From a virus (lineage: Duplodnaviria; Caudoviricetes), in IMG/VR virus record IMGVR_UViG_3300032038_000034, positions 1 to 64,000 of that record: a DNA stretch of 64,000 bases; one strand, 5' to 3'. The translations under genes and the position numbers were made by a program. The stretch's first letter is position 1. Each line of letters begins with the position of its first letter. The notes beneath the pieces are model-generated. The model had not been told where the DNA came from and searched no databases. It was given only the letters and a program-made list of their open reading frames with translations. Positions 13,749 through 56,522 of the stretch are shown one piece after another.

Positions 13749-13838
13749 TTGCGACATGGGGTAGAGTCGAACTACCAACAGGTGCTTCCGTAACACATTA
13801 TATGCCTGTCTCCCGCTTTACCGTTAAGCTACCATGTC
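13749..13838 (-). ncRNA. tRNA-like RNA without a canonical anticodon arm
   Basis: Acceptor GACATGG/CCATGTC, D arm GCTT-AACGGTA-AAGC, T arm GGTAG-TTCGACT-CTACC; the anticodon region is replaced by a branched ACAGG/CCTGT segment; ends GCAA. Confidence 0.65.
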
Positions 13839-25315: not shown

Positions 25316-25389
25316 TGGTCTTCCCGCAACGACTCGAACGCTGACCAAGAGGGTTAGAGCCTCCTGTGCTACCATTACACCACGGGACG
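25316..25389 (-). tRNA. Amber suppressor tRNA (anticodon CUA), tRNA-Gln-like body
   Basis: CGTCCCG TG GTGT AATGGT AGCAC A GGAGG CT-CTA-AC CCTCT TGGT CAGCG TTCGAGT CGTTG CGGGAAG A CCA. Confidence 0.93.
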
Positions 25390-32361: not shown

Positions 32362-32407
32362 TCTCTATAAATGGCCTTGCGTGGTTCGAATCCACGATAG
32401 AGAACAA
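32362..32407 (+). ncRNA. tRNA minihelix-like element (acceptor + T arm only)
   Basis: TCTCTAT-11 nt-CGTGG-TTCGAAT-CCACG-ATAGAGA-A-CAA. Confidence 0.55.
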
Positions 32408-38847: not shown

Positions 38848-39366
38848 ATGGCAGAAAAGAAAGATGAAAAGAAGGCTCCCGCAACAAAGGAAGCCGAGGA
38901 GACAACAGTTGATGCAATTCGCACCGGTAACCAGATTACAGACGACGCTATTACAGCCGCCCTGTCTGAGATCAACAAAGAAAAGGACGATAACAAGAAG
39001 CGCGAGGCTAAGAAGCAGCTCTGTATCGCTACCTATGTAAACCGTAAGACTGTGCTCCAGCTCCAGCAGCGCCGTCGTGAGGATAAGATCACGAAGGAGA
39101 AGCTCGATGCTTCTAAGTCGCTTCTGGAAAGATTGCTCGGTGTCGAGTGTGAGATCAAGGATGGCGAATGCATCCCGACCAAGAAGAAGATTGACGCAAA
39201 ATTGCGTCTCACACCCGTCCAGCATGAGGCCGAGACCAAAAAGATGGAGGAGGAGTTCTCTAAGAAGGTATCTGAGTCCAACAAAGAGTTCGACACCGCT
39301 ATGCGCGAGTTGCGTAACTCTTACGAGGGTCAGTACCGTCACTATGTAGAGAATTACTGGTATTAA
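38848..39366 (+). CDS. Helical, charged hypothetical protein immediately upstream of the motif-array RNA
   Basis: 172 aa; strongly biased codons; TTATCAAA leader. Confidence 0.85.
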   Translation: MAEKKDEKKAPATKEAEETTVDAIRTGNQITDDAITAALSEINKEKDDNKKREAKKQLCIATYVNRKTVLQLQQRRREDKITKEKLDASKSLLERLLGVECEIKDGECIPTKKKIDAKLRLTPVQHEAETKKMEEEFSKKVSESNKEFDTAMRELRNSYEGQYRHYVENYWY

Positions 39367-39377
39367 TCCATCACCCA

Positions 39378-39714
39378 GGTCTTTAGACGTCGAGAACCTC
39401 CGAGTCAGTGACGTTAAAGTAATCGAAAAAGATGAGAGGCAGCGACCATTGCGTGTCCAGGAGCCTAGAGATCAAGTAGATACTATATATATGTGAATAG
39501 ACACATACGTAGAGAGCCCCCGAGCCATTACGTAAAGACCGCCACCGTCCTCACGGTGTAATAATATGAGGCCATTAGATCAAGTTTGCGATGTGCGAAC
39601 CATGAGTCGGTGCTCCAGTCTGAGATGGTATCAAAAGATTGACACTGCGTTGTATATCAAGAATGCGAACACATTCTATTGAGAACCCGCGAGTCAGTGA
39701 TAGGGCAATGTGTT
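39378..39714 (+). ncRNA. Candidate multi-hairpin RNA displaying repeated GARC-N3/4-GAGYC loops
   Basis: Motif at 39394, 39514, 39597, 39683; three copies have clear closing stems. Confidence 0.65.
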
Positions 39715-39859
39715 ATTATTGAGGCAAAATAAAAAGTCGTTTCTAAGCGTTCGACATGCTTAAGTGGACCAGCTACCCACAAGAGCATAGAAAATGCGTC
39801 AGAATGGCTTAAAATAGCCTTAAATCGAGTGTTTTGACTGATCATCAAGACATTCACAA

Positions 39860-40090
39860 GTAAGAATCTTAGCGTGTGTGAGGTAAACTGTTGTGACACG
39901 GGTTCGACCCCCGTACGCTCCACTAACAATAATAAAATTGGGGCGTAATTGGTATAGAACGCAGTGGAAGTAAACACATTAAGCGCTTTGATATAAAAAT
40001 TAACTGGCAATATTAACATTGCAGACTACACGGGCCTCCAGGAGGCAGCGTGAAGTCGGTGTACAGGCTACCTAAGTGCCTGTGAAACGA
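39860..40090 (+). ncRNA. ssrA: Circularly permuted (two-piece) tmRNA
   Basis: Acceptor piece ends GACACGGGTTCGACCCCCGTACGCTCC-A (39922) BEFORE the 5' piece GGGGCGT (39940); G3:U70 pair; tag ORF 40006-40053 GNINIADYTGLQEAA*. Outer ends approximate. Confidence 0.85.
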
Positions 40091-40148
40091 GAGTGAGTTA
40101 AACTGGGCATCTTCGGATGCGGTGGGTTCGAGTCCCACACTCACTCCA
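40091..40148 (+). ncRNA. tRNA-like element lacking D arm and anticodon
   Basis: GAGTGAGT/ACTCACTC 8-bp stem, GCATC-TTCG-GATGC, T arm GTGGG-TTCGAGT-CCCAC. Confidence 0.65.
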
Positions 40149-40212
40149 AAACGTCGTGAGACGCCGTATCTTTCGAATCTAATTACTTTTGCTCCACAGC
40201 GGTGGAGCATTT

Positions 40213-40286
40213 GGTTCCTTAGCTCAGCTGGATAGAGCAACAGATTTCTAATCTGTGGGTCAAAGGTTCGAATCCTTTAGGAATCA
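40213..40286 (+). tRNA. tRNA-Arg(UCU)
   Basis: GGTTCCT...ACAGA-TT-TCT-AA-TCTGT...AAAGG-TTCGAAT-CCTTT-AGGAATC-A. Confidence 0.93.
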
Positions 40287-40307
40287 CAAATTTAAAACAT
40301 AATCAAT

Positions 40308-40703
40308 ATGAGAACAATATCCTACGATTATTTCTGTAACATCTCAGTAAAATTAGAAAAATTTGTTACAGAGAACCCAAAAGTATTAAGTTCACCAGGC
40401 AAATTGCAAAACAAATTACACCTTGCATCAAATAATTGTAAGGAATTACACAAAATTGCTCAACTTTATTGGAGTGGTTGTGTACCATTGAGAAGATTAG
40501 TATTGTCCATCATTGTTGTAAAATTTTGGAAAGATAGTGTAATATTTGAAAATTGTATGGGAGATTGTGCAGTATACCAATATATGGTAGCTAGATACGA
40601 ACCACATCTGCCATATGCAAGGGCAGATATATACACAAAAGCAAAAAGCTTGGAAAAATTTATGTTTGATACATGGGAAAACAAGGATATCGAGAAATGT
40701 TGA
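40308..40703 (+). CDS. Hypothetical protein
   Basis: 131 aa track ORF. Confidence 0.65.
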   Translation: MRTISYDYFCNISVKLEKFVTENPKVLSSPGKLQNKLHLASNNCKELHKIAQLYWSGCVPLRRLVLSIIVVKFWKDSVIFENCMGDCAVYQYMVARYEPHLPYARADIYTKAKSLEKFMFDTWENKDIEKC

Positions 40704-50929: not shown

Positions 50930-51003
50930 GAGTGAGTTAGCTCAGTTGGTAGAGCAGCGAGTTAAGTCGGCTATGTCGCAGGTTCGAGCCCTGCACTCAC
51001 TCC
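50930..51003 (+). ncRNA. tRNA-like RNA with defective anticodon arm
   Basis: GAGTGAGT/ACTCACTC stem; normal D and T arms; anticodon arm AGCGA-GTTAAG-TCGGCT (6-nt loop, bulge). Confidence 0.65.
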
Positions 51004-56424: not shown

Positions 56425-56522
56425 AGTATAGATGCTAAAGCGGCCGAGTACCCTAGAGGGAAAGCATTTGACGTCTAAGGCGTGCGGTGCACACAGAGGT
56501 TCGAGTCCTCTCTATACTACAA
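56425..56522 (+). ncRNA. tRNA-like RNA (acceptor + T arm, non-canonical interior)
   Basis: AGTATAG/CTATACT-A-CAA; AGAGG-TTCGAGT-CCTCT. Confidence 0.55.

Follow-up and report, generated by a model that had tools for sequence, protein, structure and literature searches.

Transfer-messenger RNA (tmRNA) frees stalled ribosomes, and its circularly permuted form is tied to three bacterial lineages and to phages borrowing from them. A preliminary description of the present DNA, a window of 64,000 nucleotides from a phage whose relatives belong to Crassvirales, Suoliviridae, Oafivirinae and whose source is bovine rumen, placed a permuted tmRNA with its own tag peptide at positions 39,860 to 40,090 and proposed that it had arisen by an independent, compact permutation. 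This raises the question of whether the locus encodes a working tmRNA and, if so, from where the gene came. In the present study we conclude that this amber-recoded crAss-like phage probably has a functional ssrA in circularly permuted form, host-matured and host-charged, and a stripped descendant of a Bacteroidota one-piece gene.

The gene was recognised by the programs that the preliminary description had named as checks. ARAGORN returned a permuted tmRNA ('tmRNA*') at 39833-40144 of the window with the tag GNINIADYTGLQEAA, which is the tag read beforehand, and the Rfam model tmRNA_permuted (RF04321) scored 53.7 bits against a gathering cut-off of 47 (E 1.1e-7 for the whole window). RF04321, into which RF01849-51 have been merged, covers only the tRNA domain common to permuted tmRNAs, and the one-piece model RF00023 is unable to align permuted genes. 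Four relatives scored 70.6, 66.4, 46.2 and 35.3 bits with RF04321, two of them under the cut-off. The gene ends that ARAGORN gives for the phage tmRNA are arbitrary, the 3' end being the tag stop plus 91 nt in the window and in the relative L001 alike. These calls, the covariation and the intact tag frames in 35 of 35 relatives bear out a phage-borne permuted tmRNA with a conserved tag of its own, and the T arm, acceptor strands, A73, 17-nt A-rich spacer, resume context and frame were all found where they had been placed.

The permuted order is evident in the tRNA-like domain, the 3' half of which (39898-39922) lies upstream of the 5' half (39940-39946) on one strand, the + strand, which carries all the parts of the locus described here. 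The T arm ACGGG-TTCGACC-CCCGT (39898..39914), located by ARAGORN, the Rfam alignment and covariation, carries a consensus T loop in a domain without an anticodon arm; it is 97-99% paired across relatives, and its outer pairs show compensatory changes. It is followed by the 3' acceptor strand ACGCTCC (39915-39921) and the discriminator A73 at 39922, and the 5' acceptor strand GGGGCGT (39940-39946) forms seven pairs with ACGCTCC, G3:U70 included. Among 35 relatives the acceptor stem is 98.4% paired with four of its seven pairs compensatory, and G1-C72, G2-C71 and G3:U70 are each present in 35/35; the alanine identity attributed beforehand to G3:U70 and A73 is present in the window and invariant in all 35. 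C74 stands at 39923 and the CCA tail is not encoded in the window; A73-C74 occurs in every one of the 35 relatives, and ACCA is encoded in only three. The A-rich intervening segment of 17 nt (39923..39939), which must be removed to free both acceptor ends, corresponds to a spacer of 16-415 nt among relatives with no conserved sequence.

The acceptor piece begins with the 3' strands of helix 2 (39871..39897), assigned by covariation and by alignment with host tmRNA 3' regions: H2c AGCGT (39871-75), H2b GTGT (39876-79) and H2a ACTG-T-TGT (39887-94), then GAC, with a conserved internal loop GAGGTAA between H2b and H2a. Upstream lies a conserved hairpin (39827..39855) of an 11-bp stem and a 7-nt loop CUGAUCA, in which 89.5% of cells are paired and 10 of 11 pairs have changed on both sides among the 35 relatives; most relatives have GATC as the loop core, and L028, L034, L040 and L041 have GGCC, both palindromic. 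The coding piece opens at 39940..39987 with the 5' acceptor strand, a D-loop analogue and the 5' strands of helix 2, as judged from covariation and Bacteroidota 5'-end homology: H2a (39959-65), H2b (39974-77), the bulge AUUAA and H2c (39983-87). Across relatives H2a is 89.6% paired (six of seven pairs compensatory), H2b 90% and H2c 72.6%, and the supported register is ACAC/GTGT plus GCGCT/AGCGT with AUUAA bulged out. The long helix 2 proposed at the outset therefore stands, its three segments covarying, but one of the two pairings suggested for it, ACACATTAAG/CTTAGCGTGT, does not: it is possible in the window, yet its pairing in relatives (56.6%) scarcely differs from that in shuffles (56.3%), and it does not covary.

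Helix 2 is followed by an A/U-rich single-stranded linker of 18 nt (39988..40005), which lies at the position of pseudoknot 1 in hosts and ends in the resume context TTAACT. An alignment with six host tmRNAs reveals that the host block of about 38 nt corresponding to pseudoknot 1 is absent from the phage; some relatives have a small hairpin at this position. Pseudoknot 1 is important in the tmRNAs that have been studied, and its absence between helix 2 and the resume codon concerns a feature that is typical rather than strictly defining. Downstream of the tag, a hairpin analogous to helix 5 (40030..40051) holds the tag 3' end and part of the stop codon, and is 77.5% paired with five of eight pairs compensatory in the 35 relatives. 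A single H-type pseudoknot follows (40058..40082; S1 GGTG/TACC, S2 CAGGC/GCCTG), with the conserved loop motif CTACCWAAGTG; S1 is 92.9% and the inner S2 89.1% paired, with compensatory changes, in the same set.

The tag frame itself (40006..40053), identified by ARAGORN and from relatives, runs from GGC to GCG TGA over 15 codons and encodes (A)GNINIADYTGLQEAA. In the window TTAACT precedes GGC, so the resume context and the tag ending in TGA are as first read, and the frame, whose lack of conservation in relatives had been named as an argument against the gene, is intact in 35 of 35. Variability by codon position is 1.66/1.21/3.30 in the tag versus a flat 2.64/3.21/2.84 in an upstream control. 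The 35 stop codons are TAA (23) and TGA (12) and never TAG, which suits an amber-recoded phage. In most relatives the tag ends in EAA or VA, unlike the LAA of hosts, and its role as a degradation signal is for this reason not assured.

Taken as a whole, the 68-pair model is 80.0% paired in 35 distinct relatives compared with 65.9% in shuffles, and 329 cells are changed on both sides compared with 125; none of 500 shuffles reaches the observed value of pairing or covariation, slid registers give at most 49%, and the mean column identity among the relatives is 30%. Minimum-free-energy folding of the precursor and co-folding of the pieces both find the acceptor stem but miss the T arm. The co-folded pieces show 22 of 38 model pairs, and the dimer energy gain was -17.3 kcal/mol against -7.3 (sd 3.2) in shuffles, one of 100 of which reached the observed value; these predictions lend the two-piece model weak support.

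The phage tmRNA is present in 39 of 41 assessable sources, comprising the window, five GenBank crAss records and 35 IMG/VR loci, and the permuted gene order is identical in the 36 sources found by rule and in L010, L012 and L035. A strict motif combining the DYT codons of the tag with the pseudoknot loop CTACCWAAGTG occurs in 96 IMG/VR contigs. One complete relative with terminal repeats, G001, is without the gene, which indicates that the phage tmRNA is dispensable. Annotation pipelines will miss some members of the family, namely those that score under the Rfam cut-off and those with a group I intron; a Pfam search of the ORF in the L043 spacer and of the ORF in the L010 intron gave no family.

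The locus ends with a tRNA-like element without an anticodon (40091..40146), defined by T arm covariation and acceptor pairing. Its acceptor AGTGAGT/ACTCACT is extended by G-1:C73, its T arm is GTGGG TTCGAGT CCCAC, and in place of the D and anticodon arms there is a UUCG-capped hairpin. At 98.8% pairing and with four of five pairs compensatory, a T arm of consensus form follows the coding piece in 35/35 relatives; the 7-bp acceptor varies in sequence and was found in 24 of 35 by a strict rule, and with at least six of seven pairs in all 35, three of these picks being judged wrong. A His-like G-1:C73, considered as a family trait, was discarded, being present in only 11 of the 35 relatives. tRNA-like 3'-end signals are familiar from the tRNA punctuation of mitochondrial transcripts and from MALAT1 mascRNA. 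As in those systems, a tRNA shape adjoins another RNA and processing enzymes would set the end; unlike them, the phage element is known from sequence and may stay attached as a 3' cap. Its most likely role is to have the 3' end of the coding piece defined, and perhaps capped, by tRNA-processing enzymes of the host. The element could instead be nothing but a decaying neighbour tRNA gene with no part in tmRNA maturation, a less probable reading though by no means a negligible one. The locus sits in a tRNA cluster, with tRNA-Arg next at 40213, similar anticodon-less elements occur elsewhere in the phage genome, and in some relatives the element is near full size and is called by ARAGORN as an odd tRNA (L003, L007, L037 and L042, with a different anticodon each time). 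Against decay, the T arm is kept with compensatory changes while the anticodon region varies or vanishes (45-82 nt), a pattern that points to selection on the acceptor-T minihelix alone, and contigs from RNA libraries join the element to the coding piece.

Rumen RNA-seq libraries from two studies are the source of these assembled contigs, which cover the locus although they are unable to show ends or strand and may contain DNA. Some bridge the spacer, representing precursor or DNA form, and some bridge the junction between coding piece and tRNA-like element; one exact contig runs 4 nt past A73 and stops at 39926, the unprocessed form. Contigs of one study stop at 40147-40151 and none of four runs covers 40154-40207, but these are assembled contigs whose stops carry no conclusion. 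The only terminator-like hairpin (40190-40209) comes after the locus. A promoter scan gave two promoter-like sites where 2.7 were expected by chance, so that no start site can be named. Searches of the phage genome for SmpB, a CCA-adding enzyme and a release factor of the RF-1 family found none, whereas B. thetaiotaomicron was positive in the same searches.

Following what is established for two-piece tmRNAs, we propose that a single precursor would be transcribed from the + strand, in which the acceptor strands 39915-21 and 39940-46 pair across the 17-nt spacer. Host RNase P would cleave before G39940, host 3' trimming would take the spacer back to A73/C74, and the host CCA-adding enzyme would complete the non-encoded tail, which would leave two pieces, the acceptor piece measuring some 55-95 nt and the coding piece some 150 nt, joined through the acceptor stem and the three segments of helix 2. 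In this form the RNA could be charged by host AlaRS through G3:U70 and A73 and delivered by host SmpB and EF-Tu to ribosomes stuck at mRNA ends. Translation would then resume at GGC 40006, add (A)GNINIADYTGLQEAA and stop at TGA, freeing the ribosome and leaving the peptide marked.

With regard to the origin of the gene, a 22-nt motif taken from the 5' ends of relatives matches at least 120 genome stretches. Among the 80 matches listed, 77 carry Bacteroidota names; of the three others, two (G003 and G004) draw one identical phylum sample, which had been considered as an outgroup from another phylum but contains Bacteroidota-like tags. ARAGORN finds a standard tmRNA in 65 of the 80 listed loci, and in both loci checked (L047 and L057) the tmRNA starts at the motif; the window's own 5' end is without it. 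The resume codon is GGC in 61 of 61 host tmRNAs, in which CCA is not encoded and the contexts include TTAACT, TTAAAT and TTAAAC. The Bacteroidota one-piece tmRNAs (RF00023, Gly-first tags; Prevotella, Bacteroides and Prolixibacteraceae, L046-L124) resemble the phage family in the sequences of the 5' tRNA-like domain and helix 2, and the two also agree in their acceptor variants (GGGGCTG, GGGGATG and GGGCTTG), in resuming at GGC with its contexts, and in a 3' end TCCA-C without encoded CCA. They differ in that the host genes are one-piece, of 363-402 nt, with the pseudoknot 1 block and tags like GENNYALAA, and the phage gene is permuted and about half that size, with a single pseudoknot and a tag that is longer and has DYT at its core. 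Host tmRNAs usually carry three further pseudoknots beyond pseudoknot 1. The phage parts sum to about 210 nt compared with an average of 396 nt for the sampled host genes, in agreement with the compactness first proposed.

The lineage models for alpha- and beta-proteobacterial and cyanobacterial two-piece tmRNAs, also named beforehand as a check, did not claim the gene, none of them reaching its gathering score: among the matches listed cyano_tmRNA was best with 34.4 bits against a cut-off of 70, and beta_tmRNA gave 8.7 bits over 17 nt. Judged on these scores and on the discrete Bacteroidota characters, an origin separate from the alpha- and beta-proteobacterial and cyanobacterial lineages is largely supported. 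Sequence identity adds little: phage segments are 65.1% identical to Gly-tag hosts and 62.0% to Ala-tag hosts, and 34 of 35 phage sequences lie nearer to the Gly-tag hosts, the window copy being the exception, a comparison that as an indication of Bacteroidota origin is too weak to stand alone. From its sequence characters the phage gene looks derived from the one-piece tmRNA gene of its Bacteroidota hosts, and, the host lineage having a one-piece gene, the phage line seems to be where the permutation took place.

The same gene is found in the RefSeq crAss records cr273_1 (NC_055904), cr272_1 (NC_055903), cr131_1 (NC_055902), cr7_1 (NC_055895) and cr124_1 (NC_055899), all five of which have, in the corresponding position upstream of a sigma-factor-like gene, a feature 'transfer-messenger RNA, SsrA'; the records give a bare label with arbitrary ends of the ARAGORN style. 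The best match reaches 81% identity across 40% of a query of 601 nt. ARAGORN run on cr273_1, cr131_1, cr7_1 and cr124_1 found all four permuted, with related tags, and the spacers of these phages measure 70-79 nt versus 17 nt in the window. Bohxovirus PV686213 has a homologous gene that lacks annotation. With the two-piece tmRNAs of alpha- and beta-proteobacteria and cyanobacteria (RF01849-51) the phage gene has in common the permuted order and a tRNA-like domain made from two strands; it differs from them in the failure of the lineage models, the Bacteroidota-like characters and the tRNA-like element after the coding piece. Permuted tmRNA transcripts are cleaved by tRNA-processing enzymes, according to the available text of PMC11915505.

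The preliminary description had listed permuted tmRNAs from those three lineages, a background that was incomplete given the five labelled crAss records and the two-piece tmRNAs published for marine phages, namely Methylophilales phage Melnitz, pelagimyophages and cyanophages (PMC9004378, available text). The marine-phage genes are likewise phage-encoded permuted ssrA, and the available text reports no phage SmpB; they group with alpha or cyano host lineages, the Melnitz gene carries a glutamine riboswitch (PMC9004378), and they were presumably acquired already permuted. The available texts of PMC6235969, PMC13503771, PMC12291355 and PMC9805569 treat tmRNA as a mere ARAGORN or annotation item. 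The gene is thus already labelled in public records and the category of phage two-piece tmRNA already published, while our literature search found no description of the crAss family in the texts available, the supplements of PMC11915505 (79 phage tmRNA sequences) and PMC9004378 (53 two-piece phage tmRNAs) being places that may list it. A permutation within phages of gut and rumen Bacteroidota would, if true, be another independent case of the same rearrangement. It would illustrate how little of tmRNA is needed, with no pseudoknot 1 and a single pseudoknot, and structural and mechanistic studies with the SmpB and ribosomes of Bacteroides would gain a minimal tmRNA of natural origin. Why crAss-like phages, abundant as they are, should supply a ribosome-rescue RNA themselves, and one whose tag differs from that of the host, is a further question that can be tested.

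A benefit to the phage might be sought in its genetic code, the genome being amber-recoded in the late arm. The preliminary description considered rescue of ribosomes stalled at UAG during the code switch; more broadly, late amber suppression may let ribosomes read past host UAG stops as far as the 3' ends of mRNAs, or may stall them at UAG, and so raise the demand for rescue. Four genomes (the window, cr273_1, cr7_1 and cr131_1) combine tRNA(CUA), many in-frame TAGs in late genes and tmRNA, the absence of TAG-ended tags points the same way, and tmRNA acts at unassigned UAG in RF1-less E. coli (PMC6207430, available text). However, G001 is equally recoded and has tRNA(CUA) without tmRNA, so recoding does not require it, and the tmRNA gene lies in the + strand arm, where no long frame contains more than two in-frame TAGs, compared with as many as 15 in the late arm. 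Furthermore, recoding is near-universal in the six genomes examined, so that no correlation can be drawn and the association is inseparable from ancestry. We consider a code-switch helper possible but doubtful. Equally tentative is the fuller account in which an independent two-piece gene was born inside the phage lineage from a Bacteroidota one-piece gene and halved, its coding piece was ended by an anticodon-less minihelix as one of several host-read punctuation marks, and it was kept because late amber suppression floods the cell with ribosomes running to the ends of host messages.

A quite different role would be that of a decoy, binding host SmpB, AlaRS or ribosomes and damping trans-translation without productive tagging, in the manner of the RNA of mycobacteriophage DS6A that consists of a tRNA-like domain (TLD) only. 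The loss of pseudoknot 1 and most of the body would fit such an RNA, strong inhibition of tmRNA by a TLD-only molecule, which may titrate SmpB, is reported (available texts of PMC4131195 and PMC11915505), and the restriction by tmRNA of UAG-carrying viruses in an RF1-less host, described in the available text of PMC6207430, would give the phage a motive to interfere. A decoy needs no frame, though, and the intact frames, the codon-like variation, the conserved resume context and the TAA or TGA stops render this role improbable. Finally, tmRNA genes are common integration sites, and the locus could be a relic, made of host ssrA fragments captured by an ancestral element and persisting without function. 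Phages integrating into ssrA carry its 3' part (PMC4383910 and PMC9004378, available texts) and one relative has lost the gene, but we regard a relic as very improbable: although the sequences diverge widely, neither half has been lost, the frame persists and every helix is maintained with compensatory changes, and the fixed order with a processing-compatible layout recurs in the 39 sources that have the gene, of 41.

ARAGORN calls a permuted tmRNA ('tmRNA*') on the plus strand at 39833-40144 of the window, which is the initial 64 kb of an IMG/VR virus record of 102,772 bp (completeness 100%, CheckV), with the tag GNINIADYTGLQEAA* encoded by 40006-40053, and the Rfam family RF04321 (tmRNA_permuted) matches over 39874-40053 with 53.7 bits, above its gathering score of 47. 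Both searches agree with the two-piece tmRNA proposed from the sequence in the preliminary description, and direct reading finds its parts where that description had placed them: on the plus strand the T arm ACGGG-TTCGACC-CCCGT at 39898-39914, the 3' acceptor strand ACGCTCC at 39915-39921, the discriminator A at 39922, an A-rich spacer of 17 nt at 39923-39939 and the 5' acceptor strand GGGGCGT at 39940-39946. The outer gene ends given by ARAGORN carry no meaning, since the 3' end is simply placed 91 nt after the tag stop, in the window as in one relative. The gene is real and well conserved, and presumably functions as a tmRNA. Databases already carry a label for it; what is new here is the probable separate origin, the minimal build and the tRNA-like end piece.

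By blastn against 50,697 phage records the locus is matched in crAss-like phages (Suoliviridae, Oafivirinae). Five RefSeq records (cr273_1, cr272_1, cr131_1, cr7_1 and cr124_1) bear a 'transfer-messenger RNA, SsrA' feature at this place, and Bohxovirus PV686213 contains the homologous stretch without a tmRNA annotation. ARAGORN calls a permuted tmRNA in 19 of 38 IMG/VR loci gathered through a neighbouring sigma-factor-like protein and in four of five GenBank loci. A search rule was applied that demands a T arm, a 3' strand NNNNTCC with A as the next base and, downstream of these, a 5' strand that begins with GGG and pairs with the 3' strand at every position. It recovers the permuted arrangement in 36 of 44 sources, which represent 35 distinct sequences; the locus L035 is missed by this rule and called by ARAGORN. 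In two further relatives, L010 and L012, the coding piece is present and a group I intron interrupts the acceptor piece within its T loop (L010:3650-4520 and L012:2866-3162; RF00028, 81.6 and 83.6 bits), and ARAGORN misses these genes because they are permuted and intron-bearing at once. The L010 intron bears, on its other strand, an ORF of 210 aa without a Pfam match. The contigs of L016, L033 and L038 end short of the region and are not assessable. Thus the gene is present in 39 of the 41 assessable sources, L029 and L030 having no tmRNA, and a strict motif (Asp-Tyr-Thr codons plus the pseudoknot loop) is found in 96 IMG/VR contigs. Among relatives the spacer between the halves ranges from 16 to 415 nt and takes insertions (L043, L026, L037, L042); that at L043:4331-4745 contains a 131-aa ORF with no Pfam match, and that at L026:4695-4870 an insert with a second T-arm-like motif, bordered by repeated CCAGCTCCAC.

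According to PMC11915505, tmRNA genes take three forms (standard, intron and permuted), permuted transcripts are cleaved by tRNA-processing enzymes, RF04321 was derived from alpha, beta and cyano sequences, and the database holds 79 unique phage tmRNA sequences. PMC9004378 counts tmRNA in 402 of 18,146 phage genomes, with 133 distinct gene forms, 53 of them two-piece by ARAGORN and 50 of these 53 from marine or aquatic phages, and PMC4131195 gives the phage ssrA genes on record in 2014 and reports that the form of DS6A, consisting of the tRNA-like domain only, is inhibitory. In the literature searched on crAss-like and phage tmRNA we found no description of the crAss two-piece family.

The structure is supported by covariation. 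A 68-pair model drawn from the window was scored on the 35 distinct sequences, aligned with MAFFT at a mean column identity of 30%; 80.0% of cells are paired as against 65.9% in shuffles and 329 cells are changed on both sides as against 125, values reached by none of 500 shuffles in either case; in slid registers the paired share is 38-49%. The acceptor stem scores low in this count because MAFFT set the GGGGCGT of the window one column off the GGGNNNN of the others; in the register shared by most sequences the stem is paired at 98.4% across the 35, with changes on both sides at four of seven pairs and with G1-C72, G2-C71 and G3:U70 invariant in all 35. Helix 2 consists of three segments: ACGCAGT with ACTG-T-TGT (89.6% paired, compensatory at six of seven pairs), ACAC with GTGT (90%) and GCGCT with AGCGT (72.6%, a figure depressed by the misalignment of one group in which a hairpin is inserted at the AUUAA bulge). 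The alternative pairing of ACACATTAAG with CTTAGCGTGT, put forward in the preliminary description, does no better than shuffles (56.6% against 56.3%) and was abandoned. A hairpin downstream in the tag region encloses the tag 3' end and part of the stop codon, and is followed by a single H-type pseudoknot at 40058-40082, in which S1 shows compensatory changes and 92.9% pairing. Only 18 A/U-rich nt separate helix 2 from the resume codon, whereas in six aligned host tmRNAs a further block of about 38 nt lies here, at the position of pseudoknot 1. Directly 5' of the acceptor piece lies a strongly covarying hairpin (39827-39855), the loop core of which is a palindrome, GATC in most relatives and GGCC in four, hinting at loop-loop pairing or a dimeric binder.

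The tag varies as a coding sequence does. Its frame is open in 35 of 35 distinct sequences, with the core [G/D]-N-x-N-[I/V]-[A/V]-D-Y-T and the ends GL[Q/K]EAA, [C/H/N]VA, KLAA or GLVA, and stops with TAA in 23, TGA in 12 and TAG in none. Variability, taken as the summed pairwise difference per position, is 1.66, 1.21 and 3.30 at codon positions 1, 2 and 3 of the first nine tag codons, and 2.64, 3.21 and 2.84 in the nine triplets immediately upstream. The conservation of the frame in relatives, on which the earlier proposal depended, thus holds, and this codon-like frame argues against the reading of the RNA as a mere decoy. As to origin, the lineage models of the known permuted groups in Rfam do not accept the phage gene, cyano_tmRNA giving 34.4 bits against a cut-off of 70, with lower-scoring clan members not displayed. 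From the 5' ends of relatives such as L015 and L042 a 22-nt motif was taken, from which the window's own 5' end has diverged; scanned against 185,579 species genomes, it matched at least 120 stretches. Among the 80 matches listed, 77 bear names that we take to be Bacteroidota, and two of the remaining three (genomes G003 and G004) draw one common phylum sample, the tags of which are Bacteroidota-like. In 65 of the 80 loci ARAGORN detects a one-piece tmRNA of standard form, which begins at the motif in the two loci checked (L047 and L057).

The 61 host tmRNAs with canonical tags measure 363-402 nt; all 61 resume at GGC, and the 5' strand is GGGGCTG, GGGGTTG, GGGGATG or GGGCTTG, three of these four being also found in the phages; the resume contexts include TTAACT, which is that of the window. 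Host genes end in TCCA-C, the CCA not being encoded, and the phages have A73-C74 in 35 of 35 and ACCA in three. Tags of other classes of the phylum begin with Ala, and in an identity test 34 of the 35 phage sequences are nearer to the Gly-tag hosts, the window being the exception, which mildly supports an origin from such hosts. With moderate confidence, the alpha, beta and cyano groups being judged through their lineage-model scores, we conclude that the family descends from a Bacteroidia one-piece tmRNA that underwent permutation in the phage line. Three matched assemblies named Paratractidigestivibacter, Clostridium and Gemmiger (L045, L067, L119) have a Bacteroidota-type gene with the tag GENNYALAA as their sole full-length tmRNA, and two of them draw one common phylum sample; their names or bins look wrong.

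Ten run rows recorded as RNA, all from ruminant gut or rumen, contain part of the stretch. Contigs of four runs (X1-X4) from two studies were compared, these being assembled contigs with no end or strand information and possibly derived from DNA. They cover the tmRNA locus: three bridge the spacer (39560-40013 in X1 and X2, 39560-40151 in X4), two run from the coding piece into the tRNA-like element (39984-40130 and 39984-40147; X1, X2), and an exact contig, 39560-39926 (X3), extends 4 nt beyond A73. All that follows from this is that RNA libraries contain the unprocessed form. Contigs also connect the region 39378-39714 with the acceptor piece.

A second T arm stands 3' of the pseudoknot in 35 of 35 sequences (98.8% paired, compensatory at four of five pairs) and forms, with a covarying 7-bp acceptor-like stem (AGTGAGT/ACTCACT, GCGTCTT/AAGACGC, GGGAGAG/CTCTCCC or GGTGAGG/CCTCACC, for example), an element of 45-82 nt. 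In the window it measures 54 nt, a UUCG hairpin replacing the D and anticodon arms, and in four relatives ARAGORN takes it for an odd tRNA, each time with a different anticodon. Since T arm and stem are kept while the anticodon region varies, the conserved part is the acceptor-T minihelix, the shape that tRNA-processing enzymes recognise; an extra G-1:C73 pair is present in only 11 of 35. We read the element as a putative processing signal for the 3' end of the coding piece, which it would perhaps also protect. A whole-genome scan gives four further elements with acceptor stem and T arm intact and the anticodon region missing or odd: a bare 42-nt minihelix at 32362-32403, 50931-51001 and 56425-56518 on the plus strand, and 13753-13838 on the minus strand. 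That at 50931-51001 has the same acceptor, AGTGAGT/ACTCACT, as the element 3' of the tmRNA, and a trailer N-C-A-A or a near variant is common to true tRNAs and anticodon-poor elements. The sole terminator-like site within 39300-40420 is an 8-bp hairpin at 40190-40209 followed by a short T run, immediately 5' of tRNA-Arg(TCT) at 40213-40287.

With TAG read through, minus-strand frames of the window reach 2,321 codons with 15 in-frame TAGs; the plus-strand frames flanking the tmRNA have few or none, and a tRNA(CUA) lies at 25316-25389. The window genome, cr273_1, cr7_1 and cr131_1 combine tRNA(CUA), long frames open under TAG read-through and the tmRNA. The complete genome behind L029, G001, shares the first two and has neither an RF04321 match at E <= 0.01 nor an ARAGORN call, hence the tmRNA is not required for recoding. 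This genome has terminal repeats, and with TAG read through one of its frames extends over 5,504 codons; its branch either lost the tmRNA or never gained it. In RF1-less E. coli tmRNA acts at unassigned UAG, according to PMC6207430, and by analogy the code switch would be a plausible motive for a phage tmRNA, as an idea and not a finding. SmpB, a CCA-adding enzyme and a class-I release factor were not found in the phage genome, so every partner must be the host's. PV686213, which has no tRNA(CUA) by ARAGORN, may reassign both UAA and UAG: its 5,400-codon frame (73754-89954, minus strand), homologous to the giant frame of the window genome, opens only when its 64 in-frame TAGs and its 31 in-frame TAAs are all read through. 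A close relative carries a tRNA with anticodon UUA (L018:2170-2243), and the tmRNA tag of PV686213 nevertheless stops with TAA.
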